Positions 8,544-30,586 of a stretch of 64,000 nucleotides of DNA are shown in pieces. How positions within the stretch are numbered: position 1 is the stretch's first letter; each line of letters opens with the position of its first letter. The notes below the pieces were generated by a model. That model did not search any database, was not told the DNA's origin, and saw only the letters and a program-made list of their open reading frames with translations. The stretch comes from Trichodelitschia bisporula. Taxonomy: Eukaryota. The stretch lies in the NCBI GenBank assembly GCA_010356995.1, contig ML996707.1, positions 434,001 to 498,000 on the forward strand, in the 5' to 3' direction. The translations under genes and the position numbers were made by a program.

Positions 8544-11495
8544 TCACTGGGGACCCTGGTCTGATGGAGTCAGGTGTGCGCGCGCGTTGGGCGCGTGTGC
8601 GTCATTCTCATGTGGGAGGAGCGCGACGGGAGCCGAGGTTGGGCATGTGTTGAGGAAGGGGTTGGGGGATGACGATGTTGGAGGATGGGGGAGGGATTGG
8701 AGGGTGTCCTGGTGGATTGCTAGGGAGGTGAGGAGGATGAGGGGTGCATTGCTTGGGATGCAGAACTGGCTTGGGTTGGGGGAGGTGGTCGTGAAGGGGG
8801 TGGGCGAGACGGGGATGCGATCCTCGGCCGGGGAGCAGACGGGGAGCGGATTCAGGATGTCGAGTGGAGGTTGAATGGCCGAGGTTAGGGACGACGGCCT
8901 GGGAGAGGTAGAAACTGCGATTGAGGGACGTAGGCTGTCAAGCGCAGTCGACTGCAGGAGCTTGGAGAACGACGTTTCCACCAAGCAGGTCTGCTCGAGT
9001 CGAGGGCCTTCAGCGTCCACCTCATGGGTTTGAGCGTTGACGTCGTCAATCGCCTTGGCCGGAGTTTCGTCCGAAGCGTCCTCGACTGGCGCCGTTTTCG
9101 ATATCGGTTCGGTCGAAGTTGATTCCGAGGTCAATTCGAAAGCGACGTCTTCGTCGAGAGCCTCGTTGAGGGAGATCGAATCTGATGTAGTTTCTTGGGC
9201 TTGTGATACCCCTACCGTGTCGATGGACTCTCCAGCAGGAATCTCTTCTACTGCGGTCGCTTCAATTGCAGCATCTTGGACCAAAAAAGGTGCTTGGAGT
9301 GCGAAGCTCACCACTGGCGGAAGGGCAAGGATAGTCGAAAAGACGACATCCCTTACTGTGTCCGTCATCTGCTCCGTGATGCGGCTGGTAACGGTCTCTG
9401 TTGCCGTCGACACTGCGGTTGAAGTCAGGGTTTGGATTTCCGTGCTAAGGACTGTAGCCGTAGAAATAACGGCGACCATCGAGAACTCCACTGCCGTAGT
9501 CGTCACCACCCTCAAGACCTGAGGTTGAACCAGAACGTCGCCGTCATTCGAAGAGTTCAGGAGTAATCGGTTCGTCGAAAGGACTGACGGCTCGATTGTT
9601 GGCAAACCGGAGCGTAGAGTCATAAACATGACTAGAAGAGCCAGGCAGCAAATAGTGATGTTCCTACGGCTCGTGGCCAGAAGGTAAAGGTAGTTCTTCA
9701 GAAGAGTTGAGAGCGGGACTGTGGAGGCCTTCGATGATTCGGCCTTTGGGAAGTCCTTCGTCGTAGGTTGCGATGGAGTCTTTCGCATTTCGCTCGGGTC
9801 CGAATCTTGGGATTTGGAAGTGTCAGACGGACCAACACCAGTGAGTTTCTCCTCCACAAGCATGACCACCGCATGGGCGGCTCCCACGCTGTTGACCTCG
9901 AGGGCGAGTTCCTCCTCCAGGTCTTGGATCTTCCGCGTATCGTCTCCCGCCGTGTCGCGTTCAAACTGGACCTGTCTGGCCCTCTCCTCACAGATCTCCG
10001 CCTTCGTTTCAGCCTCTTGAACTCTCCCATCAGCCTCCACCCTAGCCATTTCCACGTCAAGGCGCGCCTGTGCCACGATGTTTTCCATGCTCAATCTCTC
10101 CTCCCTCATCTTGTCCTTCTCTTCCGCAACCTTCCGATCCAGCTCCCGTCGCAAGTCCAGCGGGATCCATGGCTCAATCTCTACATCGACGCGTTCCATA
10201 TCATGCCAACAAGCCCCCCATGCCCCGGCCCGAACCAGTCCATTGGAAGCGTAGAAGCGCACATCCCACCGCCGCGTCCCGCTGCCAGTACCGCGGCCAG
10301 GGAGCCGCAGTGGAGCCGCACACTCGCTGCAGCAGATGTCCGAGCCCTCAGAGGATGCACCGCTCATACGAATCAATGCTGCTGACTGTCGCATGTCTCC
10401 GTTGAGGCTGCTGCGCTTGCTACCACCAGCGGAGGATCCAACGCCACTGTCTGTATCGGCCGGTGAGTCGGATGAGAAGTCGCCGGGAACACCATGGACC
10501 AGGAAGTGTCCATCTGAGAGCACACGAGGCGTGCAGAGCTCGAGAGCTTCCAGGAGACGTTCCTCTAGCAGATCATACTCGTCTCCTGGGTGAGAGATCA
10601 GGACACCGCGTGTCATGATGGTAGGGTTTAACTGTTCCCAAAGGAGAGACCAGTTGTCTAGGACGTGGGGCGGAACGACATCGCGGAAGGTGTGTTGCAG
10701 CCAGATAGGTTCCCTGGCCGGGAGAATGGTGACGTGAAGCAGAATGAGAGGTCCCGACTTCGGCTTCGAGTCGTACTGTGACACAGGAAGGTCTGACAAA
10801 ACTGGGGATGGGGGGCCGGGGTCAATAGATCCCATGCGCTGATGACCCTGCATGAGCATTTCCAGCTTCTGTAAGTCGCGGCGTATCTGGACGTTGAGGT
10901 CCTCTTCGTCCCTGTCATCTGAACCGTCGAATGTCGCCATCCTGCGTGTTGTAACCCGGTCGTCGCCAAACTGGGACTCTGTGTTCTCGATGGTCTCTGC
11001 ACGATGGCGAGAGAGTATGATGTCAGATGGATGAGATGGGATTAACTCGTCACCGGCGTGCGCGGGCCACTTTCTGCTGGTGGATGCTTTGGGGGAACCG
11101 ACAACGGAAGGGCTGGCCATCCGTAAAGCTTGCACCTCGCTCGGAGTACGGAAAGGTGGACGGGGTGTTTTGCGTGGCTGATGTGCGGTAAAGTTTGTAG
11201 AGGGTGCGATTGAGGGTGGAATGGAAGAGATGGAAGTGTAAGCGGCAGAAACGTTGCGTGTCTGCGACACGGACGGCAGGTCCGCCGAATTGCCACGCGA
11301 GTGCGTTGGGTAGCGACGTAAGGTCATTGAGTTGCGCTGAGAGATACTTTTGGGGGAAGGAAGCTCGGAGAAGCTAGGTGGGGAGCTGCTTCGGTCGCGC
11401 ATTGCTGCGATGGTGCCAGGCAGTGTCGCTAGGTGGTGTGTGGAAGTGGCCAAAGAAATATCGTGTTGTTGACTGGATTCGACTGCGAAAGGCAT
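8544..11495 (-). CDS. Uncharacterised 983-aa protein: disordered N-terminus, globular core, coiled coil, one TM helix, Ser/Thr/acidic tail
   Basis: Uninterrupted 983-codon ORF. Globular-looking blocks PLILLHVTILP, RGVLISHPGDEYDLLEERLLEALEL, CSEC, WDVRFYASNGLVRAGAWGACWHDMERVDVEIEPW, then an E/K/R-rich coiled coil and hydrophobic ITICCLALLVMFMTL. Confidence 0.75.
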   Translation of the reverse strand: MPFAVESSQQHDISLATSTHHLATLPGTIAAMRDRSSSPPSFSELPSPKSISQRNSMTLRRYPTHSRGNSADLPSVSQTRNVSAAYTSISSIPPSIAPSTNFTAHQPRKTPRPPFRTPSEVQALRMASPSVVGSPKASTSRKWPAHAGDELIPSHPSDIILSRHRAETIENTESQFGDDRVTTRRMATFDGSDDRDEEDLNVQIRRDLQKLEMLMQGHQRMGSIDPGPPSPVLSDLPVSQYDSKPKSGPLILLHVTILPAREPIWLQHTFRDVVPPHVLDNWSLLWEQLNPTIMTRGVLISHPGDEYDLLEERLLEALELCTPRVLSDGHFLVHGVPGDFSSDSPADTDSGVGSSAGGSKRSSLNGDMRQSAALIRMSGASSEGSDICCSECAAPLRLPGRGTGSGTRRWDVRFYASNGLVRAGAWGACWHDMERVDVEIEPWIPLDLRRELDRKVAEEKDKMREERLSMENIVAQARLDVEMARVEADGRVQEAETKAEICEERARQVQFERDTAGDDTRKIQDLEEELALEVNSVGAAHAVVMLVEEKLTGVGPSDTSKSQDSDPSEMRKTPSQPTTKDFPKAESSKASTVPLSTLLKNYLYLLATSRRNITICCLALLVMFMTLRSGLPTIEPSVLSTNRLLLNSSNDGDVLVQPQVLRVVTTTAVEFSMVAVISTATVLSTEIQTLTSTAVSTATETVTSRITEQMTDTVRDVVFSTILALPPVVSFALQAPFLVQDAAIEATAVEEIPAGESIDTVGVSQAQETTSDSISLNEALDEDVAFELTSESTSTEPISKTAPVEDASDETPAKAIDDVNAQTHEVDAEGPRLEQTCLVETSFSKLLQSTALDSLRPSIAVSTSPRPSSLTSAIQPPLDILNPLPVCSPAEDRIPVSPTPFTTTSPNPSQFCIPSNAPLILLTSLAIHQDTLQSLPHPPTSSSPNPFLNTCPTSAPVALLPHENDAHAPNARAHLTPSDQGPQ

Positions 11496-12613
11496 TCCGT
11501 AGACTGGTTACTGAGACACGGTCGTGACAAACATCTAGTAGTAATTGAGACAAGAACAGCAAAATCCTCGAGTAATCGGAACTTGGGACGTCATGGGCCG
11601 TTGAAGCCCATCGTGACATCGCATCTCTGGGCGGGTAAACGCTGATGGTTGGCCCAGCAACGGCCACCACACCACATCCCGATGCCGGGATCGACACACC
11701 GATGCTGCATCATCTTCAACCCGAAACACTTTGAACACTGAGACAGGCCCTGCGATCCGAACCAATTGAGTTTAGTCGAATGCGATCCTGTTGCCGTTGC
11801 TATGTGCGGTTATCTGATGAATTCGTCAAAGCACGTTTGTGGCGCCATCAGCCACGATGTGGATCCGGGTAATGCGGGGCATGCGGGGTGCCTTCCCTTC
11901 AGTTCCGGGGATATTTCAAGGTCGTATGTATTTCCCATCTGCCATTAAACCACCAAGTTACGGTATCTCAGCACTTTCGCCTTTGGTCTGCCTCCTTAAG
12001 CCTGCCTATCTGGTCGGCGACGAGCCATCAGGCTACGGATAAGGTTATCGAAGCGCCGCGCCAGGAGCTCAGCCCCAGCGTATCAGGTCGTGGTATCGTC
12101 AGATATAGCCGCCTTTTTCTACTTTGGTAGGCCCACATCCATGGCGGCTTGGGCTGCCTGCTTGGCTAGTGAGTTAGCCAGGTGACCGAGGCCTCGGTGG
12201 GCTCCTTCAAGATGATATTGCCTTCCAAGCCTACTGTACGGAGCACGGTAGTCGACAACAGTGCCACGATTGGGCTTTCGCGATGAACCAACGTACGGCC
12301 ACGGCATTCTACTTCCATTTTAGCATTTGCAGGGCGGCTTCGGGCCTCCATAATGAAGCTTTCTCCTCGAGGCACCGCCGCTATGTCAGCCTTATTTTCT
12401 AATAAGCGCCCGCAAAGTGCGGCTGAAATTGTCCAAAAGCAGCATGGGGCATGCGCGCCACGATGCGTCTTCGCGGGGCTGGCTTTGACCCCTGGTCGGG
12501 GAACGCCAGACTGACACAAAACTGATCATCACGGCCTCCGTCTACAAGTGGGCATTCGATCCCCAGTTCATGATCTTTATCACAATGCTTTCCGAAAGAT
12601 TGAAGTAAACAGC

Positions 12614-15600
12614 ATGGTTTTTCACAGGCCCAAGTGGCTGAAGGGCTCGAAACTAGAGGAGGCGCATGCCCCACCAATTTACAGCCTACCTCCGGTGCAA
12701 CAACGACCCTACAAAGCTTCCGTGCAACCAGTTCGGGTCCAGGAAACAGAAGAGCAGCCTTCTACAACCAATCTCCGACCAGTCGGCGCTCAAGAAGCCA
12801 ACTTTGGCCTTTCGGTTCCGAGACACGGACATCAAAGATGCAATTCAGCATCATCTGACCTGGACGCCATCCCACAGGCGGAGGCCGAAGCTCGCAAGCA
12901 TATCGCAAAGATTCGAGCCGAAAAAGGTCTTGATGGGACCGACAGCAATACTGCCGACTTGCAGGCCGCCCTCGTTGTGTAAGATATGTGCCAGACCGAC
13001 CTCTTCTAGGAACTAACGTGTTCAGTCTTTCTGAGCAGTTGTACCAGAAGTCAACCCACTTTCTCTTGGAGTTGGTGCAAAATGCGGATGACAACGCCTA
13101 CAATGTGCCCAAGCCTACATTAAATATCACATACGAGAAGCGCACCCTTCGTATTGACTGCAATGAAGTCGGCTTTGCTAAGAAGAATGTCGAAGCCATC
13201 TGCCGAATCGGCCGGAGTTCGAAGGCCGGCTTGGATAATTCGAGGCGGTATATCGGCGAAAAGGGCATTGGCTTCAAGTCCGTATTCAGGGTGTCTGATG
13301 TGGTCTCCATCTTCTCCAACCACTACTCATTCAAGTTCGATAAGAGCCAGCGCCTCGGCATGATTGCTCCCATCTGGGAAAAGTTCCCAGCCAAAACTCT
13401 GCCTGGCTACACATCCATTTTGCTACAACTTTCTCAGGATTGCGACGTTGAGGAGCTCATCCAAGAGATCAAGTCATTGGATCCCAGGCTTTTGATATTC
13501 CTGCAGAAGTTGAGACAAATCAACATCTTGATCAAGAGGGATGATGACCTCCCATGGCGCTCAGCGCTCGAGCGCCTTGATGAGCCCACCATTAATAAGA
13601 AGCACCAGCTCATTACCCTGCATCACCGTTCAAAAGTCCTCCCGTACCTTATCTTTCGGCTGCAGGTAGGAAACCTTCCAAAAGATCCGAAGCGCGAAGG
13701 CATATCGCAGTCCGAACTCCTGCTGGCCTTTCCTCTGGACGGTTCAGGCCAGCCTAGAATCGAACCGCAGAACGTCTACGCGTTTCTCCCAGTCCGAGAC
13801 TATGGCTTTAAGGTCTGAGGCTCCTCCAAAAAACCGCCAAAGTACTAACGCCTTTCAGTTCTTACTCCAGGCCGATTTTCTTCTCATTGCTAGCCGCGAG
13901 GACATTAACTCGTCTGCAGACTGGAACCAAGCCTTGCTCCAAATGGTGCCGCTTGCGCTGCACGATGCTATCAAGGAGTTTAATTCGGGGAATATGCGAT
14001 ACTCATGGCTCCCTTATCTACCACTACGCCCGTACGTCGGTGATTTTTTCAAGGGACTCGAAGACCACACGCTTGATGTGCTTCAGACGTCAGCCATCCT
14101 TGAGTCCTTTGACAACAGGCTCATGATCCCAGGGTCACTCATATATGTACCCGCAAAGTTTGCTGATACTGACGGAAAGCCGCTCATTCTCACTAAAAGG
14201 ACGATGGCCAAGTATCTCTCTCACAAATACTCGGCCAATGACTGGTACCGACTTTCCCATCTGGGAGTGCGGAGCCTTACGATTGATGGCTTCATTGACG
14301 ACCTCAGCAGTTACATTTTGGACGATCCAGCTAGCTTTCAAAAGCAGCCTGATGCGTGGCATTCTCGTCTTGCGCAAGTCTTAGTCTCTCAAATCTTCAG
14401 CAACAAAGCGTACCAGGCTGCAATTGCTACCCTCCAGATCGTTCCGCTTCGGGACGGCGGATGGGCGGCTCCAGCTGAAGTAAACCTTTTGTTTCCGTCC
14501 CGTTCAAAGGCTCTCGTTCTGCCGAAAGGACTTGACATTGTCGAAATCCACCCTCGTGCTGAGACGGACAACCCGCGTCGACAGCTCTTCATGGCGCTGG
14601 GAGCCAAAGAATTCCAGAAAGAGCAAATTTGCGATATCATTACTCGGTCCCACGAAAAGCGTGAATTCCAGCCAGAAAAGCTTACGACTGAGGAGCTGGT
14701 GTCCCAGATTGTTTTCCTCTATCAGTCAGGTTGGCGGAATGCCGACAGACGTGATGTGTGGTTCGCCACGGAGAGCGGGAAACGCTGCCACGGCTCGCAG
14801 GCGTACATGGACTCGGATGTTGAGTATGCAGCGAACTCTGTGTTTTCAGAGAGCAGAGGTCAACTGTCGTTCCTCCATGGAGACTACTACAAGGCTTTCC
14901 AGGTTACAGTCACTTCGGACAAGGTGGATGCTACCTCAAAGTCAGAGGATTGGGAGAAGTGGCTCGCTGCCCATATGAACGTGGCTCAGATACCTCGTCT
15001 AGCTACACCGTCCATCGGAGCACCCTTTTCTCTGTCTAAGGAGTTTGAGCAGCTCCTCAACACGCTTTCGTCAACGGAACTGCTGCTTCTGGTCCGGCAT
15101 CATTGGAAATACTACTCACGATGGATTGCGTACGAAGACTCCCGTGTCAAAAAGTCCGTCTGGGAGATTTCACAAGGGAAACTAAAAAAGAAGCTGTCCT
15201 CCATCCAAGTCATGTGTCGCGACGGTACGATGGCTCCGTTGAACAAGACCTTCTTGCCTCTGAGCAGCATGCAACTCGAAAGTTTTGTCTCCGTTCCATT
15301 CCTAGACGTTCCTGAACCTGACGATGACCGATGGGACTTCCTGCGTCACTTCGGCGTGATTGTCGAATTGGATGCCGCTTTCTTCATTGAATGTGTCCGA
15401 AGGTTGAAGGATGGGCAAACCACGCAGAAGCAGGTCTCACAGCTGTACGAGCAGATAAGCTTGTGGGCCACGCGAGACAACGCCGATTCCATCAGACGTA
15501 CCTTCGACTCCCAAAAGCTCATACTCATTCCTGACGATAGCAATGAAAGTGGAGGCGAGTGGGTCAGCATCGAGGAATGTATCTGGAGTGGACCAAAGTG

Positions 15601-18600
15601 TCTCAAGTCGACACACTGCCTGGAAAGGCACTATCCTGAGCACCAGGCCTTACTCAGAGACATGCTGAGAGTTGGAGACGCAAACATCAATACCCTGGTA
15701 TCCGAAGCGCGCTGCATCGTTGCGTCCGACAGCTTGGAGTATATATCGCAGGTTTTTATCGCCCTCAGCAAATACCTGGAGCTGGCAAATTCGGACTCAG
15801 CAGTCAGACCACTTGTTGCATGCCCGATCTTCCCTGTGACGACCGGAAAGTCTAACTCCGAGTATGATTCACTTGCTACTGCGGCACCGGACGACATGTG
15901 GTTTGTGGCTGACCGCTCGCACTTGCGAGATAGTTTCGAACTTCTGGTTCCATTGCTGGCGTTCGGCATTGATGTTGTCGAAAAGATCGGCCCACTCATC
16001 GACTCGCTGGATATGGAGCGTCGTATGCTATCCAAAGTCGCCAAGGGCGTGTCAAAGGCGCATGGAAGAGTTGAGATTGATCCAAAGTACACAAAGTCTC
16101 TTCGACAGAAGGCCAGATTCATTGCTCGGTAAGGTCTTCGGCATCAGCGTTTCGCTCACATGACGTAATTCAGATGCTAATGTCGATCAGACTGGTTCCA
16201 AAGGAAAGCGCGAACCGGGCCGGGATCCTTCGACTGCTTCCCAAGATCGAAGTGTACCAGTCCGAAAAGGTGCTGGTCGAATGGGTCGTCACTCTGTCTG
16301 GAAATACCTTTTACGGTAGGGCCGACGCCGGGAGGGTGACTTCTTCTCCTGGAAAGCTGGGTCTGAAAATCTTCTTGACTGAGGAGGATATCCATGCGGC
16401 GTTGCCACCCCTCGAGCTCCAAGAGGAATTGGCCAACTTTAGCGAGATCCGCGACCCGAAGCATTTCACCATTTTGCTCTACATCCTTATGCAAAATGAT
16501 TTTTCAGCCATTGGAGACACTTTTGAGCGCCGCGGGATATCCGGTGAGGTCCCAGAGTTTGACGCTGCGAGCGGCGGTGCCGACGACGGAGCCGAGCCGC
16601 TGATTCGACCCTCCAAGCCTCAAGAAGCCCAGAGGAACAGGCGACTCCTATTCAAAGGCCGACGCCGGCCCGTTAAAGATCACGACTCTGAAGATGCACT
16701 GTCTTCCTTCATCAAAAAGGTCGAGAGGGTTGTCAATCTCAAGAAGTCGAGTGCAGAGCCATGGGGAAGCACTGATATGGCTGGTCTCTTGTCGAAGATA
16801 TGCAAGGTAGAAAACCGCGATGCTGACATACTTCTACCGCGCCCGCGCTTGGAGCTTGGTGATATGGGCGATCCAGTCGAGTCGATGTTTGATGCGAGAA
16901 CCGGGCAGTGGAAAGAGATGGTCATTCATCCTGACGACCCGACAGCGGCAAGTAAAGATGGGCAGGGGCCTGCGACGGATTATCGAAGAGTTCCCGATGT
17001 GGACGAGGAAACCCGGTACATCGGAGAGCTTTCGGTGTCTAAACTTTTCGAGTCTTACCTGGGCGGCACATACGATCCGAATGTCCACTGGACAAGCCCA
17101 CTACGCGGCAAAGCTGGCCACATGCCTTACGAGAACTGTGGTGCAGGTGCCTCGACATTTACCATATCATCGCAGGGGGAAATGTTCACGAAGTTTTTGG
17201 CGAAGCGTGGATTCCTCCGGGCAGCCTCGTGGACGACGGCGCCAGCCTACCATATTCATGTCGTCTCAACCTACAAGGGACTTCAGTCCACCTTTCTGCT
17301 CGACCCGACACAGGTCGAAAAGGCAAGTTATGGAACGACGTTCTGCAAATCCTAAGGTTTCTAATATGTGGATAGGCTCAAAAGTCCTCGATGCTGCGTG
17401 ACAGCGGCACGTCTCCCAAGGCGGTATTCATTTTAGTCTCTGTCTTCAAGATAACATCAGATCCTGGTATTGCGCTATTCGTCGATCCATGGCAACTTCA
17501 TGTCAACGGATCTCTGTCTCTGCTTTCACGCACGCCTTACTATGCCGCTTTCCAGGACGCGTCGTCTGCCATCTTGTTGCAGGGGACAGTTGATGCTCCT
17601 GAACCACAGCCGTCCGCTGAAGGCGTTCGTAAAGTCTCAAAAACCATGCAGCATGGTGGAAAAGCCGCAGCAGAAACGCAGCGTAGAGCCATGTCAAAGG
17701 ACGGGTATTACACCTATCGGCCGCTGCGCAACCACCGTGAGATCCGCCTTCTCGAGCTTTACCCCGGAAAGGACGACCAGCCCCTAGAAGGGGCGATCCG
17801 CCACGTCTCTGTTGACAAGCCCGGCGTCTACTGGGCTCTATCCTATTGCTGGGGTGCTGCCCTACAGCCTTTTACCTTCGTTACACCTGACGGCAAAATC
17901 CCGCTCACCGCTTCGTTACAAAGTGCCCTGACCGGCATCCGCGATGCTGATGTCTCAACGCTTCTCTGGGCCGACGCAATCTGCATCGACCAGGATACCG
18001 CGCTGGAGAAATGCACACAAATCCGCCTCATGTATACCATCTTTCAGTCGGCCGAAGGCGTCATCGCCTGGTTGGGAGATGAGCGTGACGGCAGCGACCG
18101 CGTCATCGAAACTCTGCTGCAAATCCGCACGCTAGCTATCAAACCTGATATCTGGCCGGAATACCTTCCCGCCGTACCCGTCTCCTGGGATGGAGGTAAC
18201 ATGCCGCCCGCCACCGACACGGTTTGGCGTGACATCGACCGCCTCTTGAACCGCGCGTGGTTCCGCCGCGCCTGGATTGTGCAGGAACTCATCCTTGCCT
18301 CAGCGGTATCTCTGTTCTGCGGCCGCTGGGCCATAAACTGGGATGACTTCTTCGAGGCCCTGAAGCTCTGCCGCGCCGCCGCACACGATCCCGGCCACCC
18401 GCTCCTTCCCCATTCGGACGCCGCCTATGCCCTCGGCCAAGCCCGCCACATGCACGCCCTCACGCCACGGCCACTGCTGACCCTGCTCGACCTCTTCGCC
18501 TACACCAACGCAACGCGCTCGCGGGACAAGCTCTTCGCGCTCCTGGCCCTCGCACCCGACGCCGCTTCCTCGTCTTTTGATCCGGACTACACCTCACCCC

Positions 18601-19454
18601 TCGAAGCCGTGCTCAGGCGCTACGCTGCCACCTTTGTAGTACAGGGTCATGCTCTCTCTCTTCTCCAGCGCGCCGGCACGGGCAAGTCTTACCCCTTCGC
18701 CAGCTGGATCCCGGCTTGGACAGTTGCGGCCGCGCTGCCGACGCTGGCGACGTGGCGCGGAATGGGCGGGACTTTTTGCGCGGGTGGAAGCGGAGTCCAG
18801 CGCGGGGAGGTGCGAGACGTGGCGTTGGTTGTGCGAGGCGTGGTTCTCGATGAGGTCGCGAGCGTGGTGAGTCCCCGGTCTGCGGATGTGGATGTCATTT
18901 CTTGGATCAACGGCCTGCGCAAAGCGGTCCTGGATCTGCGTTCCTACCCCTCGGGCGAGAGCCGCGCGGATGTGGCGCGTGCATTGCCGATTGGCGCGGC
19001 GGCGGGGCCGGTGGTTGAGCCTCCGGCTGGGAAGGTGCCGGGCATTCTTACGGGGACAGCATCGGCAGGATGGGCATCGTGGCCGAAAGACTACACGAAA
19101 TTGGTGGAGCGGGCGGGTGTTGGAAGTGTTGGGGATATGGTTTCGTTCCTCAAGCGGCCACCGGCGGAGCGTGAGGTCGTGTGGAATTATTGGCAGACTG
19201 CCGGGGCGTTTGAGGGAAGGTTTGGGAGCGCTGGGGCAGTGGGTGCTGTACTGGGGAAAGGATGGGTGGGAGTTCTCAATGCGGGAGTTGAGAAGGGAGA
19301 TCAAGTTGTATTGCTTGAGGGAGCGGCGTGTCCGCTTGTACTGCGGGGGGAGGGGGAGAGCTGGAGAGTGGTTGGGGAGGGGTACGTGCATGGAATTATG
19401 TATGGGGAGCGATGGGAGAAAGAGAAGGGTGGGAGGGAGTTTGTGCTTGTTTGA
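12614..19454 (+). CDS. ~2210-aa fusion: sacsin/NO VEIN-like GHKL (HATPase_c) ATPase + degenerate NO VEIN C-terminal (DUF3883-like) domain + HET (HET-6-like) heterokaryon incompatibility domain
   Basis: Exons 12614-12978, 13026-13812, 13859-16128, 16191-17322, 17376-19454 sum to 6633 nt (2211 codons) with every junction in frame; the last intron is GC-AG. GHKL motifs HFLLELVQNADDN, CNEVGF and IGEKGIGFKSVF. HET motifs EIRLLEL, YWALSYCWG, LWADAICIDQ, WFRRAWIVQE, and C-terminal GDQVVLLEGAACPLVLR...VGEGYVHGIMYGE. Confidence 0.85.
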
Positions 19455-21445
19455 TGCTATGGGTTAGGTGCAGTGTCCTGGATAGCGGTTGGGCTGGGGA
19501 GGGTGTCGGCGTTGCAGAACTCGGCGTTGCCGAAGGCGCATTGCAGAACTTGGGCTTGGAAGGCTGAAGTTGGGTATGCAGGCATATTGGGATCGGAACA
19601 TGGGGCGTGACGGCATCGCGGAGTTTGGCCGATGCTACGGTATTGGATACCTGGACATCTTGGGTTCTACCCCGCTTCTCCGGCCCAGCAAGTGCGGGAT
19701 GCGCAACCAGCATTATATCCCGCCAAGGGATGAGGTTGGAGCGAGCGTGCCTGCGTGCATCTGCAGGATCCTGCATTGCAAAGTGTTGGGCGAGGGCTGA
19801 ATCGGGCGAGGCTGAAGAAGGCGGAAAGAAGACGGTGGTTGGACGAGGGGTGCATTGGCGGCACGGTCACGGCATGAACTAGTAGCTAGTTCTACGGTAG
19901 TTCTAGGAGCCTGAGCCGCGGCTTCTCGGGCCTTGGGACTTGGCTAGGCTCGGACACGGGGGTACCGGTACTCGTTCCATCAGCCCTGGGATGTGGTGTT
20001 TTCTCCGGCTTCACGGAGAGATGAGGAGAGGGGAGGAGGGAAGTGGATGCGATTTAGGTGGGCTCAGCCGGAGGTCACGAGTAGATGTTGGACAAGCGCA
20101 TCAGATACTGTACTCTGCACGAGGCGAAACGAGGGTACAGCGGGCTCGAGCGCGATAGCATGTGTGATAAGAGCCCTTTCCGTGGCGGGAGTGTCGGGTA
20201 ATTTCACGGCCACTTTCACGAGACGCCGATGGACGTATGCCGAGCCCCACTCACCTCTTCCCACCTGCCGATGCCGGTGGAGACGTGGACACTGGCGTCG
20301 GGATTCGGGAAAGAGGAGGAACGGGAACAAACTACGGGTCATTTTTTGACTGGAGAGTTGGAATTTCGGTGGGGCCGTGGGGCCGTGGATCGAGGGATCG
20401 GAGTGTCGCGTGCGGTTCTACCTAGGGTGGTTCCCCAGATTTAAATGCGAACGGCTCAAGGCCGTTGGCATGTGAAAGTACATACCGGGAGAAGGCTGAG
20501 AGGGACAAAGGGCCAAAAAAGTCATGGCCGCTCTGCCTAGGTGTCTTTGCGGACGGAGCGGCTGCGACTTCGGATGGCCCCAAGACCCCGAGGCTTGCTG
20601 CAGGTTGGGTGTTCATCCTCTGATAATGACGACCCCGCATGGCCGAGAAGTGCCGACTGGCGGGTCGACGAGCAGAAGATTGGAGATTTTGAGATGAGAT
20701 GAGACAAGATGATATGCCAGATGGCTGGCCGCCGATGTGCATCTCGTATGGATGTATGGATCCAATTGATGCTCTGAAGATCCTGCTGGATACCGCGTAC
20801 CGGTACAGTAACCCATCCGGGGAAATGGGCGATTCTCTCGTGGACACATGTCGAAAGGCCTAGGCTCAAGCTTCGGCGAACAGCAAGGCAAAAGGCGTGA
20901 CGACGATAAATGGGCGTAGATTGTCTACGGTTCTGCTAATGGAGCGCTGGAAGCGGGAAGGGGTCGGGGTCAGTGGTTAGCGTTCTTCTTTGATGCTCTG
21001 CCGAGCTAGGATTCCCCAGTGTGCGCACCGACCCTTCCCAACAGTTTTTTTTTCTTTGGCCAGCAGAAAATCAACCGAAGACGCGCTGAAAAGCTGTTGA
21101 ACCGAGACAAGAGATCACTATATGTGCCGGACGGATGGAGAGGTCGTGCGGATAGCGAAGAGAAAGAAAAGGGCTAGTTGGTCTGCAGCGGAAAGGCTAC
21201 GTGTAGTGTCCACTTTACCTTCTCGTGTATATACAAGTGACGACCACATCGAGGCACGCGAGAGACTTTTGTTGTACGTTGAACAGGAAGTGACGAGAAG
21301 AGCCTCTCCCTCGTTCTACAGATCTCGTGACCTGGCGCTTGGTGAAGAGTTTGCCAAGAAGCGCTGCACGTCATAGCTACGCCCCCAGTTGGTAAGGTAC
21401 CTTTTCAACAACCTTTTCCCACCAACATCCTCACATCCTCACTCA

Positions 21446-21484: not shown

Positions 21485-21733
21485 TGTTTCCGATTTGCGT
21501 CCTGCCTGTTGGCCCGCTTGTACGGCTGATACCAGAGTCTTCGGTGCGCCTCTGCGTCCAATCCCTTCGAGAAGGCGGCAAGAAAAGCTCCGTGTCAAAG
21601 CTTAGCCCGTGGTAGCTTTCTTCCAACGACCTACAAAAAAAAAGCAAACACCCCGCTCGCGCAATAAAACCTCCCGCTTTCGAAGTCTACAGCTTCTTCG
21701 TCTGCTCTCACAACTCCCTACAACACCACGGCT

Positions 21734-24536
21734 ATGTCCGGGCCCAGCCTGACGCTGCGGCTGCCGCCCAGGTGGCTGTTCGCCTTCCCTCCCGACCCCG
21801 TTCCCCTCGCACTGCCGCCGCCGACCGACGCTCGCACCTTCGCCAGCCCGTTCCCCATCGATGCGAAGCTCTTCAACGATGCGCTTGATTGGAAGGTGCC
21901 TGTCACCATTGGCGCTGTCTATGCGACCACCGCCATCTTCATGAACCGGATCAACCGCGAGCGTGGCAACAAGCCCTGGGGCTTCTCCAAGACGGCCGCC
22001 TTCCACTACTTCGTCCTCGCGCACAACATCTTCCTCGCCGTCTTCTCCGCTCTCACCTTCGTTGGCATGATCCGCGCCCTCGCACACTCGTGGCCTGGCA
22101 ACCGCGAGCTGTACATCATCGGCAAGTGGTGGCCGGGCCTGCGCACGCAGAACGGTCTGGCGGGTGCGGCTGATGCGCTCTGCAAGATGCATGGTCCGCG
22201 CGGTATTGGCGATGCGACCTACTACGACCCGCACACTCATACCTGGCTGAACAAGAACCCGAATGTGTTGCTCGCGGCCAACGGTGCTCCTGAGAACAGC
22301 GATGTTGGGCGTCTTTGGAACGAGGGTCTTGCATTCTGGGGCTGGTGGTTCTACCTCTCCAAGTTCTACGAAGTCCTCGATACCTTCATCATCTTGGCCA
22401 AGGGCAAGCGCAGCTCCACTCTGCAGACATACCACCACACGGGTGCCATGGCGTGCATGTGGGCGGGCATTCGCTACATGAGCCCTCCTATCTGGATGTT
22501 CTGCTTCTTGAACTCGGGTATTCATGCTATGATGGTAAGTGCAGCGCTCTGCTGTTGTCGCTTCCGGACGCTAATGGCCCCAGTACACCTACTATACACT
22601 CTCGGCGCTTCGCATCAAGGTTCCCCAGCGCATCAAGCGCACGCTGACGACCATGCAAATTTCCCAGTTTCTCATCGGCATGACCTTTGCGGGCCTGCAT
22701 CTCTTCGTCCACTACACCGTTCCCGTTTCGGTGCCGATCACCGTCACCGAGACCATCAGCTCCGCTATCTCGAGCGCTTCGGCTGCTGTCGCTAGTGTCG
22801 CATCTGAGGCCTCGTCGGCTGTTGCTGCGGGCGCCACGGCTGGGCTCATGGACGGTCTTAAGAAGGCGCTTTTCCGCGCTGCTGGTGAGGAGGGGCTTGC
22901 GGAGAACGTTGGGCGTCGCACTCGCGAGCCTGCGTTGAGCCGTCCTTCGAGCATTCCGGGCCACCAGATCCGCAAGCAGACCCATATGCACACCGCGTAC
23001 CAGGAGATTCCGTGCATCGACACGCAGGGACAGGCCTTTGCCGTCTGGCTCAACCTGATCTATCTTGCGCCCTTGACGTAAGTGTTCCACTGAATTGTTA
23101 GAAGACTCACCTAATCGTGTTTAAGCCTGCTCTTCGTCCGCTTCTTCATCCGCTCCTACACGCGTCGTGGCTCTCCCTCTACCAAGCACCAGACGGACCG
23201 CCGCCGCGGACAAAAGGCCATTGCTGATGCCGTGCACGGTGTTGATCGTGAGCTCAAGACTCTCGGCTCTGACGGCGCCGCTCCCGACTCTGCCCCGAAT
23301 GGCAAGAAGCACACCAACGGGTCCGCTCAACCGAACGGTCGTCACCACTCGGCGGGAAACGACCAGGCCGCGCATGATGAGGACGCTCCGCTTTCTCCTA
23401 CTCTGCACACTCCCCGTCAACCGGAACGCAACGAGGCTCTCGAGGCCCCTCGGAGCAGCTCTTCCTGCAGCGACAAGCGCCGCGTCAGCTCCACCATCGA
23501 GCGCATCGCGCAGACCTTCGCAAAGGGATCCGATGAGGCTGTCCAGGAGGAGCGTCGCGGCAGCGGTTCGGTTCGCGTTCTGAGGCAGAAGGCGAGCGAG
23601 GGCCACGAGAATCTGCGTCGGCGGTTCGAGGAGGGCGCGAAGGCGGTGCAGCCTCGCTCTGAGGACACTATCCGTCGCCAGGCGAGCTCGAGCTCCATGC
23701 GTGGCGCCTCGGCCAAGGATGACGATTCAAAGTTCTCCATGAGCTCGGATGTTATCGATCGTCTGGCGGACCAGGCTGAGGAGATGGTCAAGCGTGTGAA
23801 GCGTGCAGTCGAGACGGAAGTGTCGGTGGACCATGTGGATGATGAGGAGTCCGACGGGGCGGAGCATGAGGCTAGCTCGGAGTCCGGTGTCCTGGTTAAC
23901 GGACCGGGGTTCTCGCCTGAGGAGCTTGTGCCTCGCTCGTCCAGCCCGCGCAAATCGCGCATCCCTCTGGCTAAGACGCGCAGCGCTAGCCCGATGAAGA
24001 AGGGCGCGAAGGAGAGTGCGCCGGGTAAGAACGCGGAGGAGCGGACCCAGGATGGAACTACGGACCAGCTGATGACTAACGGTAAATCTACCCAGGAGAC
24101 GAGTCCCGCGTCCCCACGCCCGCGTGCGGCAGCGCGCGGCGCTAGCTCGCGTTCTCTGAACGACGGCGCCAGCAGCGATGAATCCCGCGTGGCTGACGAC
24201 GAGGGTGTGGGCAAGGCGGGGCTGGGGAGTGCGGAGGACAAGAGGGCTGATGATAACGAGCAGGCTTCTTCGACGACGGACGGGGACGAGCAGGGTGCGC
24301 GGGGGAGGTCGCCGAGCCGTGGGGCTTCAGCGCCGGCGTCGGAGCGGCGGGATGGGTCTGCTGAGGGGGAGGGGTTGAGTACGGATGATCCGCGCGAGGT
24401 GGGGGTTAGTTATGCGGATATGTTGCACAAGGGAGATGCTGAGAAGGAGGAGAAGGGGGAGAAGGAGGGATTGAGTGCGGATGATCCACGCGACGTGGGC
24501 GTTAGCTACGCCAACATGGTGCAGGCGGGAGCTTGA
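21734..24536 (+). CDS. Fatty acid elongase (GNS1/SUR4/ELO family) with long acidic disordered C-terminal extension, ~901 aa
   Basis: FYLSKFYEVLDT, LQTYHHTGA (His-box variant), NSGIHAMMYTYY, TTMQISQF, YLAPLTLLFVRFFIRSY. Introns 22535-22583 and 23078-23125 join three ORFs in frame (2706 nt). Confidence 0.9.
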
Positions 24537-26974: not shown

Positions 26975-29900
26975 AGTTCGGTGAGGAATGTGGATGTGGG
27001 CGGTGATTCGAGAAGAATTCTAATTGTGGGGATGAGGCGCTTGGAATGGAGGCAATGAGGCGCCAAAATTTGATATGGAGGCGGCAAGGTTGTTGCGTCT
27101 CCTTAATGTCTAGCAGGCTGGTAGTTAGGACGGCGACCCCAAAAGGGCCCCTCAACAGAGAGATCCTAGATGGACGTCCAGGGAAGGCGATTCAAAAGCT
27201 TTCCTCGTGGAGGATGAAGTTCGGTGAGGTATGCAAATATGCCTGTGGATCTCGCGATGCCGAAGTATAGAGGAGGACCACTGAGCTGGAGAGAGCGTAA
27301 GCCAATTTATGTCCAGGCAGTCGGATAGGAAAAACTTTGAGGCTAACATACAAGACCGAGGGTGGGGCTTATCTTTGTACTGAACAACCGCTTTCCGCAG
27401 CAGCTAAGCGGTGAGAAGTACATCCGGCAGCCTGGGAACTTGTGCGTGCACAGCCCTTCTTCAGCCTGACGCTATAGCCAATTTCGATGCCACCATTAAT
27501 TTGCAGCAGATGGAAGGACTGAACATCCCCAAGACATAACGACCAGAAGACCGTGATGATGCCAGCAGGTTGTTGTGTGATGCCAGCTTCAGCGAGCCAT
27601 CTCCTCATGACAGACTGGAACTTAGCAAGGCTGCATCTTCAAGCATACCCCTTGTTTATGATCGATTGAGTCGTTGTCTGGTTTTCCCGCAGCTGTTATC
27701 AAATGCTGTTGGAGTCATGTAGGAATAAATGGGATGTTGGAGACCATGACAAAGGCAAGGAATCGAGATCGATGATGGGCATTTGAAGCGGGAAAACACA
27801 CTGTCGGTGGACTCCCTCGATCGAGTTCAAAACCCAGCGAACTCAGCCCTGGAATGAACGAGGCTCACAATGAGGCTATGCTAAGAGTAACGACTTTGAG
27901 GCTTTACGAAGCCACAAACCAGTCATGCGCTAGGAGGGCGGTGGACAGGCCAACCGAAATCTGTTTAATGGAACAGCGAAGCCTGGCTCTCACAGCTACA
28001 GAAGTCAGAAACACGATCGTCAAGTAGCATCTTTGAGATGCTGTGAAGGACTACCAAGGTAGAGAAGTTGAGGTACAGGAGTGATGTCAGTCAAGCGCTG
28101 AGAAACCTCTTTCCAGATATGGCTTAGCGGTTCAGGCATACTTCATTGATTCTGCAAACCTGAATATTTCGAATCGTCCTCGGCCGCTCTTGCGCCCACC
28201 TTCCAAGGCTGCGGCCTCATGCGAGAATAGCGCTTCACTTTGTCGCTGTGAAAGAAGGCTACCTGTATACCGTAGATTGCTGCTAAGAGCGTCCCTAATT
28301 GGCCGCCGAAGAAAATGCCAGCCGGATGGGTATCGGAAATCAATCCTTAATGGTACCGGTCGGAACGTCTTGATATGGAGCGGCGAACAGCCGGAGCTCG
28401 CCGCCAACCGCTCAGGGATGCCGACCATGTTCAAATAATCCCGAAGCCGTTTTGACGCCCGACGCTGAAGCGGAAATGTCGCCGCTCTCCTTTCGGGCAC
28501 CGTGTGGCTTAAAGTGCCCCATGAATTTACCCGCATACCCGGGCTCTATTTGCATATCAGCTGAGATAAAATGACTTGGCTGAGCCTTACTGTAGTACAA
28601 GACACTGAGCAGTGACCGCTTGTTCCCATACTCCAGCCCTTTTGTACCTCAGATGTGTGCTATTCCAACTGAACTTCCGTAAGAGCGAAAGACGGAGTCG
28701 ACCGTGTTCGTTCACCGACTCATGGCACCATAGAATGCCATCCCATATTGTAACATCGCTGACTTGCCATAGATTGCGATGACAAAGCTTTGTAAAAGGG
28801 CGTGGTTGATGTCCAACATCATGACACGCCCTCGCCGTCCGTCTTGAGACGGTCAGAAAAAGTGTGAAGGTCCTGAGAGCAACCGAAGAAGCATCCCGGC
28901 GGAGATCCTTTTAAATCATGGACCATTCCGTCGGTCACACTCCGTGATGTCAGCATATCCATGGAGTTGTTAACCATGACCGAGAATAGATGAAAGGTGG
29001 GTGTGGAGAGACAGCTCATGAAGAAAACTTGTCCGATCAGTTCAGGATCTAAGCATTTTCGTGGGCAGACTTACCATGGTGCACCTGCAATATCGAGCTC
29101 CAGCGTCCTCGGCATACGATGTGGGATCAAGCTTCTGTCAGGATCCCTTGCCTGCAGGACCAGACGCAGACGGCAGCGCTCGCTTTAACGGTGGTCGCTC
29201 CACCGGCGAAGCAAACGCACATCGCAGAGTCCGCATGGCGATTTGCGTAATCAAGTAACCGAAGGCAGCCGCAGTGCTCGTACTCTTTGCCGCATTACAA
29301 GTTCTGCCAGACATGGGACAAGTGTGTCTCTGTGGTAACAAGTAGTGTCAAGAAGTTATTTCGAGGGATACATCGGTGACGGGGCAAGTTCGCGGACGTT
29401 GGACTTTGAGCTGGAGGCAATGAAACGTTTTAGTGGCAACCTCCAAATGCTACGAGTATCGGAGGTAACGGTTCTCGAGAGGCAAAGACGTCAAGTTAGC
29501 GTCCTTCGTATTCGAAGTCTCCGTGGATGGTACTGTGACATTTCGGAGGGTATATCATCGGCTGCCTAAGAATAGGCTCATCTTTAATCACGAGTACGCA
29601 ACTACTCGCCCAGCAGCCATGTTCCCTCCCGCAAATCTCGACCAACGACCAACCAGAAGCGCCGATTCCTTTCCACGCCCCAAACATGTCAGCTCAACTG
29701 GCGATCAATATTGATTTTTTGCGTATTGGTCCACGAGAGCAGCTGGTCGTGGCAAGCGACGTCGAATGACATTCGGTGATGACAAACCGTAGACTGCGGT
29801 CAAGATCGTGGTTCGTGGCAAGTCGATTGTTCAGCTTTCAGCTTTCAGCTTGCTGGAAACCGGAACTCAGCCTTGGAAGGGTACGGTACTATGGAGTATA

Positions 29901-30011
29901 TTAAGTCAGGTCACAGGCGCCTTTTCGAAGCTGAAATCAGCCTCCGCTTCGACATTCAAAAGATTCAGAAAGGATAAACCTCAATCCACAAACATGCCAA
30001 CCAACTTCGAT

Positions 30012-30586
30012 ATGGCAGGAATCAAGATCGCCGCTCTGCTGCTGCCGTTTCTTCTCGCGCCAACTCTGGCCTCGCCCACTGGAAGCCCTCGGCATGCAAC
30101 CTTCACGCTGAGCAACATCAATTACAACTCTTCCATGATATACTCTACGCCGGCCCACCTTGCCGTCTCAGAAGGATACATCGACTTTGATCTGGAAAAC
30201 AGCGCCGTCCCCTACACCGCGCATTGCAGCGCATACAGCTCCCGGGGATTCGGCTTCTTTTTTGGCGACCAAGTCTATCAATGCACCGTCCCGGCAGGTA
30301 GTGCTAGCTTCACCTTCTCCCAGCCGGACGGCGTATTTAATGTGAACGAGACTTGGACACAGGAACACGGGCACCGGAGGTACGTAGTGCAGTTTCCGAG
30401 GCTTAGGCGCCACTCACACTTCGCAGTCAAGATTACCTGGGCACGGGGTCGGGCAGCATCACCCTCGATTGCTCGACGGTTGTGTACACAAACCCCAACT
30501 GGACTATTGGTGACATCTACAGCACCACGACGGAGACGTGCCAACCCGGCGAGTTGACCATCAAGCCGACTGTTGTTCGCGTGTAA
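30012..30586 (+). CDS. Small secreted Alt a 1-like (AA1-like domain) protein
   Basis: Signal peptide MAGIKIAALLLPFLLAPTLA; YSTPAHLAVSEGYIDFDLEN...CSAYS...FFFGDQVYQC; intron 30380-30426; second exon ...LDCSTVVYTNPNWTIGDIYSTTTETCQP...; 4 Cys. An alternative in-frame ATG lies at 29994. Confidence 0.72.

Follow-up and report, generated by a model that had tools for sequence, protein, structure and literature searches.

The locus at positions 12614..19454 on the forward strand of a 64,000-nt stretch of the Trichodelitschia bisporula genome (contig ML996707.1, positions 434,001 to 498,000; this whole stretch is referred to below as the window) raises the question of whether five open reading frames (ORFs) that look unrelated belong to one gene and, if they do, what kind of protein they encode and what that protein does. 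Almost certainly, they form a single gene whose product joins a Tiamat-like ATPase, a long central core, a dead nuclease fold and a HET-6-like module. Among GHKL ATPases, the product belongs to the Tiamat / NO VEIN / sacsin branch, as a fungal Tiamat-like protein, and an immune or cell-death role is plausible.

The exon set was assembled from five stop-to-stop ORF pieces of the forward strand (12515-19454), which were joined by coordinates after the junctions had been read. The resulting gene model, based on the spliced translation and on transcript contigs, has the following parts.

12614..19454, forward strand: whole gene, 5 exons, 2210 codons plus stop
12614-12978, 13026-13812, 13859-16128, 16191-17322 and 17376-19454, forward strand: exons
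12979..13025, forward strand: intron 1, 47 nt, GT-AG, from the sequence and a contig joint
13813..13858, forward strand: intron 2, 46 nt, GT-AG, within a conserved block, between YGFK and FLLQADF
16129..16190, forward strand: intron 3, 62 nt, GT-AG, from the sequence and a contig joint
17323..17375, forward strand: intron 4, 53 nt, GC-AG with donor GCAAGT, between residues 1518 and 1519 of the nuclease-like domain

The joined exons give a 6633-nt coding sequence and a 2210-aa product identical to the NCBI hypothetical protein EJ06DRAFT_240603 [Trichodelitschia bisporula] (P0001 in our protein set). The transcript data consist of contigs from two public runs of the same sample and study, compared with the genome over 12300-19800. 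All four introns are skipped at the predicted places in the contigs of the two runs; a single contig of 6591 nt spans 12516-19314 with all four splice joints, and intron 4 is bridged by a contig of the second run too, with about 500 nt on one side and about 1950 nt on the other. Because the introns are present in the genome and missing from the contigs, the latter derive from spliced RNA. The joint at intron 4 (17320/17374) is ambiguous by 4 nt, and only the +2 register, 17323-17375, yields a known splice pair, GC..AG. The contig pieces listed end at 19314 and 19321, and the last ~45 codons lie beyond their coverage. The original prediction, made from the letters alone, had proposed one spliced frame and transcripts across its four junctions as a check; the identity with the annotated protein and the presence of all four joints in one contig bear it out.

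The same contigs bear on the possibility that two genes have been wrongly merged, a Tiamat-like gene ending at TAA 17353-17355 and a separate HET gene starting from ATG 17391. The non-canonical GC donor of intron 4 is in keeping with such a boundary, as is the annotation of Xylogone, which divides the homologous region into a 1452-aa protein with its end precisely at the place of intron 4 and a HET protein of 566 aa. A separate HET transcript from ATG 17391 is, however, not what the contigs show: both runs contain contigs that cross the junction and extend over 500 nt to either side of it, and all four joints are present in one of the contigs. Intron 4 also interrupts a single folded domain whose last strands lie in exon 5, and the full four-part architecture recurs in 45 representative proteins from many genera. 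Moreover, among the 74 nearest HET matches of stand-alone length, 23, including most of the closest, start with the tail of the nuclease-like domain; judging by their sequences, they look like last-exon ORFs of similar fusion genes. The two-gene model was rejected on the strength of the contigs of both runs that cross the intron 4 junction, and it retains next to no probability. The two Xylogone sp. PMI_703 proteins (P0004, 1452 aa, and P0204, 566 aa, which begins inside the HET domain) come from contigs of identical size (9,083,828), and the annotation seems to have divided one gene at the non-canonical intron.

The N-terminal two thirds of the single product identify the family to which it belongs, and their parts are as follows.

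12614..12892, forward strand: N-terminal ~93 residues, poorly conserved; relatives begin near the ATPase in the alignment
12971..13812, forward strand: ATPase domain of the GHKL (Hsp90/sacsin) type, residues ~120-384, with intron 1 inside it
13069-13092, forward strand: motif I, ELVQNADD, with E137 and N141
13255-13287, forward strand: motif III, GEKGIGFKSVF
12893..14968, forward strand: match to the PADLOC profile TmtA, residues 94-754 on profile positions 4-668 of 1302
13859..16983, forward strand: central core, residues 385-1405, in which the last part of the ATPase/transducer region is followed by ~1000 residues

The PADLOC profile of TmtA, the protein of the antiphage system Tiamat, matches residues 94-754 with an E-value of 5.9e-83 and is matched by all six family proteins scanned. 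Pfam SACS is found at residues 168-227 (E 9e-12), the NCBIfam model P_loop_sacsin matches at E 8e-17 with weak Hsp90 matches besides, and in a PDB sequence search with the whole protein the sole match is the N-domain of the Hsp90 protein TRAP1 (E 0.004). The assignment to sacsin/NO VEIN-type GHKL ATPases that had been made from motifs alone is thus confirmed by profiles, the two motifs begin exactly where they had been placed, at 13069 and 13255, and the tie to prokaryotic conflict systems is stronger than had been guessed, since an antiphage profile covers the N-terminal 660 residues. The blocks ELxQNADD, DCNExGF and GEKGIGFKSVF are kept in 15 of 16 aligned relatives, the sixteenth being without its N-terminus. 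Because these nucleotide-binding motifs are conserved across relatives, the ATPase looks functional and is probably active. The absence of a typical NOD-like receptor (NLR) NTPase, also foreseen, is supported by a whole-protein Pfam scan that returned neither NACHT nor NB-ARC (E ≤ 0.01).

The central core contains no Pfam family at residues 385-1405 (E ≤ 0.01) and is conserved: the 756-aa exon-3 product, searched against 1.84 billion representatives, matches 1987 of them at E ≤ 1e-3 and 518 at E ≤ 1e-30, and the best 150 of the 1987 matches were taken further. Among prokaryotes, sampled as one genome per species, at least 607 stretches fit two ATPase motif patterns, and in at least 412 of these the encoded sequence is related to the ATPase exon; the top relative among the matches listed has 41% identity across the 262-aa exon-2 product. 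The combination of SACS plus NOV_C, which is the canonical Tiamat layout, is present in four of six prokaryotic ORFs scanned. In three prokaryotic loci, from Methanococcoides and two Bacillus genomes (L005, L050 and L057), Cys/His-rich HNH-like tails replace NOV_C, which fits the effector swapping that is described for Tiamat-like proteins in the portion of the preprint literature accessible to us (cited below).

Between the core and the HET module lies a domain with a PD-(D/E)xK fold, which is absent from the earlier account of this locus. There, some 1100 residues after the ATPase had been described as helical-looking; the last ~180 of them form a nuclease-type alpha/beta fold.

16984..17585, forward strand: nuclease-like (NOV_C / PD-(D/E)xK-fold) domain and C-terminal strand extension, residues 1406-1588, spanning intron 4
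17257..17265, forward strand: H1497-V-V1499, the dead form of a catalytic motif that is (D/E)-x-K in relatives
17586..17738, forward strand: linker, residues 1589-1639, poorly conserved in the alignment

An AlphaFold2 (AF2) model of residues 1406-1588 (183 residues, built with 25 relatives) reaches a mean predicted local distance difference test (pLDDT) of 90.1. Its core has the order alpha-beta-beta-beta-alpha-beta, and the strands at model residues 129-137, 144-149 and 162-164 are encoded by exon 5, whose segment VFILVSVF...FVDPWQL..G.L.L aligns with the extreme C-terminus of relatives that lack HET. In VIA-align, the best match is the Holliday junction resolvase Hjc (1gef; Z 6.2, root-mean-square deviation (rmsd) 3.6, 101 residues aligned), followed by RecU-type, VRR-NUC, homing, tRNA-splicing and restriction endonucleases, with nine chains at Z ≥ 5; these Z values for the model are modest, yet the list consists uniformly of PD-(D/E)xK nucleases. 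Foldseek against the PDB returns nothing at E ≤ 1e-3 for this model, though PD-(D/E)xK nucleases dominate the sub-threshold list.

Sequence comparison places the same region in the NOV_C family. Fungal relatives without HET match Pfam NOV_C here, one of them (P0015) at 23.9 bits, where the cutoff is 22.1, and another four with E-values from 4.5e-7 to 1.6e-5, and precomputed PF13020 is assigned to 6 of 34 close relatives. In the window protein, Pfam NOV_C is detected neither in the split exons (E ≤ 0.1) nor in the whole protein (E ≤ 0.01) nor in residues 1406-1588 (E ≤ 10). A hidden Markov model (HMM) of the fungal nuclease domain finds no match in the ORFs of 79 prokaryotic loci (E ≤ 10), and the fungal and prokaryotic nuclease domains are linked through Pfam NOV_C and direct alignment. 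The motif strand is YIEVKST or FIEVKGQ in the NOV_C of archaea and bacteria. HET-less fungal relatives have YHLEVKTT or YYIEVKTT at this place, and the window protein has YHIHVVST, the upstream Asp of relatives being replaced in it as well (T1463, S1467). The domain thus keeps its fold, as modelled, and has lost the catalytic (D/E)xK, and the missing catalytic residues place the protein among the 'Tiamat-like' forms, not strict Tiamat. A separate arrangement is found in an 821-aa protein of Fusarium avenaceum (P0171), which has the reverse order, with an N-terminal HET domain (184-331), a C-terminal intact NOV_C with EVK and no ATPase; either a merging of gene models or a distinct architecture could account for it.

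The dead nuclease domain may serve as a dimer hub, as suggested by structure prediction. When two copies of residues 1406-1588 are modelled together, the predicted homodimer scores 0.62, compared with 0.01 for the best of three controls; the dimer runs share at least 91% of contacts, and the partner pLDDT is at least 80. As calibration, among solved structures from microbes, 21 of 30 one-chain pairs and 0 of 23 single chains attain the score mark; the corresponding figures for eukaryotes are 17 of 29 and 0 of 30. The predicted interface is formed mostly by the last ~25 residues, whose strands pair over a two-fold axis, directly ahead of the linker to HET. A similar pairing, obtained with AlphaFold3, is reported for active Tiamat nucleases in the accessible text of the Tiamat preprint (bioRxiv, 1 Oct 2026).

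The C-terminal part of the protein is a complete HET-6-like module, as had been anticipated from its three motifs.

17739..19451, forward strand: complete HET-6-like module, residues 1640-2210, consisting of the HET domain, then a helical part and, at the C-terminus, a small beta-barrel
17829..18287, forward strand: Pfam HET domain, residues 1670-1822, ending in WIVQE (E1822)
about 19236-19448, forward strand: C-terminal beta-barrel, from the AF2 model

The Pfam HET profile is matched in full (1-146) with an E-value of 3.9e-26, and precomputed Pfam assigns both PF06985 and PF26639 to the protein. ALSYCWG, WADAICIDQ and WFRRAWIVQE are all present, and their cores (SY.W, W.DA.CI.Q and WF.R.W..QE) are kept in 11 of 11 aligned HET-bearing relatives. 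The AF2 model of residues 1640-2210 has a pLDDT of 89.9 and a predicted template modelling score (pTM) of 0.88. An HMM of residues 1851-2210 matches stand-alone proteins that bear PF26639, and genuine stand-alone proteins with PF06985 and PF26639 (~565-730 aa) cover 97-100% of the module at 23-41% identity. The segment 17976-19451 (codons ~1801-2210) is G+C-rich (0.62-0.66, with third-codon-position G+C of up to 0.77 in codons 1801-2000, versus 0.51-0.54 elsewhere), a composition that yields long spurious ORFs on the opposite strand (18594-19463); the rise may come from amino-acid bias (Ala, Gly, Arg) or from a different history of the fused part.

Foldseek against the PDB returns nothing at E ≤ 1e-3 for the module model. 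In VIA-align, its best match is a TIR domain (7fcc; Z 4.7, rmsd 3.4, 102 residues aligned), below the caution line of about 8 given for the tool. The top rows cover model residues 23-241 and consist of TIR domains and nucleoside 2'-deoxyribosyltransferases; 22 of the best 50 rows are TIR proteins (15 by title), and about 10 are nucleoside 2'-deoxyribosyltransferase-like. SARM1, TIRAP and five ThsB entries are counted among the 22. These TIR-like rows, weak evidence by themselves, are in line with a remote kinship of HET to TIR proposed in the literature, and the HET domain alone is described as sufficient for the induction of cell death (both from the accessible part of PMC12881547).

A comparison across relatives links the HET module to the loss of the nuclease motif. 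The 162 proteins considered were scanned with HMMs derived from our own alignment, and the parts were found in the following combinations.

ATPase, nuclease-like domain, HET and HET C-terminal part: 45 proteins of 162
The same parts minus the ATPase end: 1 protein of 162
ATPase and nuclease-like domain only: 18 proteins of 162
Fragments or other: 98 proteins of 162

In the alignment column of the catalytic (D/E)xK motif, the two kinds of protein differ.

HET-fused: 46 rows, 0 with the motif kept; 43 without Lys, 2 with LxK, 1 unaligned
HET-less: 20 rows, 12 with the motif kept; 8 without it

An approximate, midpoint-rooted FastTree phylogeny of 64 rows was built from a fast alignment of the ATPase-plus-core region only. 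In this tree, the HET-fused proteins fall into two well-supported clades (9 HET with 2 HET-less rows, and 36 HET with 2 HET-less rows), and the motif-bearing HET-less lineages sit outside both. Nuclease loss and HET fusion look, on this tree, roughly like one deep, ancient event.

These observations can be assembled into a mechanism in which the ancestral Tiamat nuclease effector would have been replaced by a HET cell-death effector in the HET-fused clade. The dead nuclease fold would have been retained as a constitutive C-terminal dimerisation hub, by analogy with the C-terminal domain of Hsp90, while the N-terminal GHKL domains would close in an ATP-dependent manner, under the control of a ligand that binds the central core. 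Closure of such a clamp might bring together or re-orient two HET modules, which, so placed, would trigger regulated cell death; candidate ligands are a component of a mycovirus, nucleic acid of foreign origin and a non-self protein. For the step from sensor to HET-driven death, taken separately, we would put the chances at somewhat less than even, whereas the explanation as a whole, which combines the architecture, effector replacement and the clamp, seems to us about evenly balanced between right and wrong. In its most specific form, the proposal holds that HET-fused Tiamat-like proteins are non-NLR intracellular immune receptors of fungi derived from a prokaryotic antiviral system, in which the DNase became a dead dimer hub, killing passed to the TIR-like HET domain, and the clamp closes on a viral or non-self ligand; this is possible, with our own judgement leaning towards doubt.

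Several points weigh against the immune and cell-death reading. The fusion family is known from sequences and predicted structures alone, the ligand site in the central core is purely hypothetical, and the ligands named are candidates. The dimer prediction may recall solved PD-(D/E)xK dimers from the memory of the model, and the TIR likeness of the HET model is weak (Z 4.7, with a negative Foldseek result). The transcripts come from two runs of a single sample, neither of which is on record as RNA, so that the RNA status assigned to them is a guess. In the HET-less set, the eight rows without the motif include four that are nested in the HET clades, all of them motif-less, which may be truncated gene models. 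HET state changes in five independent contrasts on the tree, of which no more than one shows a difference in the motif; for this reason the pattern is best described as a clade character, and repeated co-evolution of HET gain with nuclease death finds no support from contrasts this few (five). The biochemical activity and structure of HET are entered as 'ND' in the accessible part of PMC12881547. Finally, as far as the available text of the Tiamat preprint (1 Oct 2026) goes, NO VEIN and sacsin have critical non-defence roles.

The last point also favours a housekeeping, non-immune role, comparable to that of NO VEIN in plants or sacsin in animals, in which the core would act in nucleic-acid or protein homeostasis, HET would be regulatory or inert and the dead nuclease would mark a lost defence function. 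The catalytic death of the nuclease would suit such a role, as would the presence of contigs in both runs, that is, expression without a stated challenge. It is less easily reconciled with the HET module, in which the motifs, including the Glu of WxxQE, are retained in every one of the 11 relatives and which folds confidently throughout; conserved motifs together with a confident fold imply that the HET effector is under selection. Furthermore, the family is absent from most fungal lineages sampled, and a set of named representatives confined to Pezizomycotina is a poor fit with an essential housekeeping gene. On these grounds, a housekeeping function is considered unlikely.

The named members of the family all belong to Pezizomycotina and represent four classes.

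Dothideomycetes: Trichodelitschia, Lojkania, Zopfia, Amniculicola, Lentithecium, Plenodomus, Lophiotrema, Clohesyomyces
Eurotiomycetes: Coccidioides, Aspergillus wentii, A. lentulus, Cladophialophora
Leotiomycetes: Cadophora, Cudoniella
Sordariomycetes: Fusarium, Thozetella, Monosporascus, Xylaria, Rostrohypoxylon, Cercophora

These classes are intermixed inside the clades of the tree, which fits either old paralogy with patchy loss or transfer among fungi. A scattered and intermixed distribution of this kind also favours a het-6-type allorecognition locus, at which the HET-6-like module would act as HET-6 does in Neurospora, by killing heterokaryons in which a partner is present as a non-self allele, and the Tiamat-like part would be a large polymorphic recognition region or scaffold, with no sensing of pathogens; the analogy with het-6/un-24 is drawn by the Tiamat preprint itself, in its accessible text. 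The core, however, has 53-56% identity between different genera and orders, which shows ordinary divergence and gives no sign of hypervariability, and het loci make up only a small minority of HET-domain genes, according to the part of PMC12881547 available. The genomic surroundings offer no candidate partner either: seven of the nine neighbouring ORFs scanned have no Pfam family, ELO and AltA1 are the only families found, and a ribonucleotide reductase (un-24-like) is not among the nine. Allorecognition of this type is therefore judged quite improbable. The neighbours of note are as follows.

8544-11507, reverse strand: 987-aa Ser/Thr/Pro-rich ORF without a Pfam family, just upstream, its start ~240 nt beyond the end of the X2 contig described below
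21668-22792, forward strand: GNS1/SUR4 fatty-acid elongase (ELO), E 6e-35, downstream
29793-30554, forward strand: ORF of the AltA1 (Alternaria allergen 1) family, E 3e-12, downstream

A contig of run X2 continues 552 nt further upstream of 12300 without a joint (region 11748-12613); accordingly, either the 5' leader ahead of ATG 12614 is ~860 nt long or more, or the contig is a merge with the transcript of a divergent neighbour. In 10 extra-long or HET-less relatives scanned, no other effector domain was found, HET and SACS being the only domains present apart from those of one 2398-aa protein (P0054); it carries an N-terminal DUF7703 and C-terminal alcohol-dehydrogenase domains around the Tiamat-like core and is probably a gene model that merges neighbouring genes.

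If the immune and cell-death reading is right, these proteins would be a second way of joining a sensor to HET, built independently of the HET-NACHT-WD40 NLRs, and fungi would couple a bacterial-type antiviral GHKL sensor with a cell-death domain of their own. They would also offer a tractable system for studying the activation of HET, HET as an NAD-consuming relative of TIR, and the ligands of Tiamat-family cores. The pattern of a dead nuclease followed by HET suggests a design rule by which the effector is exchanged and the dimer hub is retained.

The architecture had been thought uncharacterised, an expectation that does not stand: in the parts accessible, two bioRxiv preprints (Yuan et al.; Lageide et al., 1 Oct 2026) report fungal Tiamat-like proteins with C-terminal het-6-like or heterokaryon-incompatibility fusions. 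In those parts, both treat the HET fusion bioinformatically only, and the Discussion of one of the two regards C-terminal domain swaps as interchangeable effectors. Beyond these preprints, no further mention of a combination of sacsin, NO VEIN or DUF3883 with HET was found in the literature searched. To this picture the window gene adds transcript support, a GC-AG intron within the nuclease fold, the consistent loss of the motif in HET-fused forms and the predicted dimer of the dead domain. Systematic motif loss in HET-fused forms, a dead-domain dimer and transcript evidence were not found in the main-text parts of the preprints, supplementary tables aside, and some of these additions may already be contained in the supplements.

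Tiamat (TmtA), a bacterial and archaeal antiphage protein composed of a GHKL ATPase and a PD-(D/E)xK DNase, is one of the closest known systems. It shares with the window protein the Hsp90/sacsin-type ATPase motifs (up to 41% identity over 262 aa) and the succession of ATPase, long core and C-terminal NOV_C-type nuclease fold. The window protein differs in having HxV in place of ExK and in the addition of a linker and HET-6-like module of ~620 residues, and its gene has four introns and lies in a fungal genome. The TmtA profile is matched over its first half only in the best stretch (4-668 of 1302). The Tiamat core (DUF3684 region) comprises a transducer, TPR-like folds, Fold B and a metalloprotease-like fold, and the TmtA match of the window protein reaches residue 754.

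NO VEIN of Arabidopsis and human sacsin possess the same sacsin-type ATP-binding domain (SACS, P_loop_sacsin). NO VEIN further resembles the HET-less fungal relatives, which carry Pfam NOV_C, whereas the window protein falls below NOV_C detection; in addition, the N-terminal region of NO VEIN is missing from fungal homologs, according to the accessible text of Lageide et al. The J and HEPN domains of sacsin are missing from the window protein. The HET domain and the PF26639 C-terminal part are common to the window protein, HET-6 of Neurospora crassa and HET-6-like proteins that stand alone; in the window protein, however, this module is the C-terminal third of 2210 residues. The designation 'HET-6-like' follows from the Pfam pair in common and from the wording of the preprint, there being no N. 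crassa HET-6 entry among the matches.

HET-NACHT-WD40 NLRs (HET-E/D/R) are comparable in that a HET death domain is coupled to a large sensor containing an NTPase, and activation induced by proximity may be common to both, a parallel drawn by analogy only. The NTPase of the window protein has a GHKL fold and not a STAND fold, and its HET domain is C-terminal, whereas that of the NLRs is N-terminal. Instead of the oligomeric wheel of these receptors, the window protein is predicted to form a dimeric clamp.

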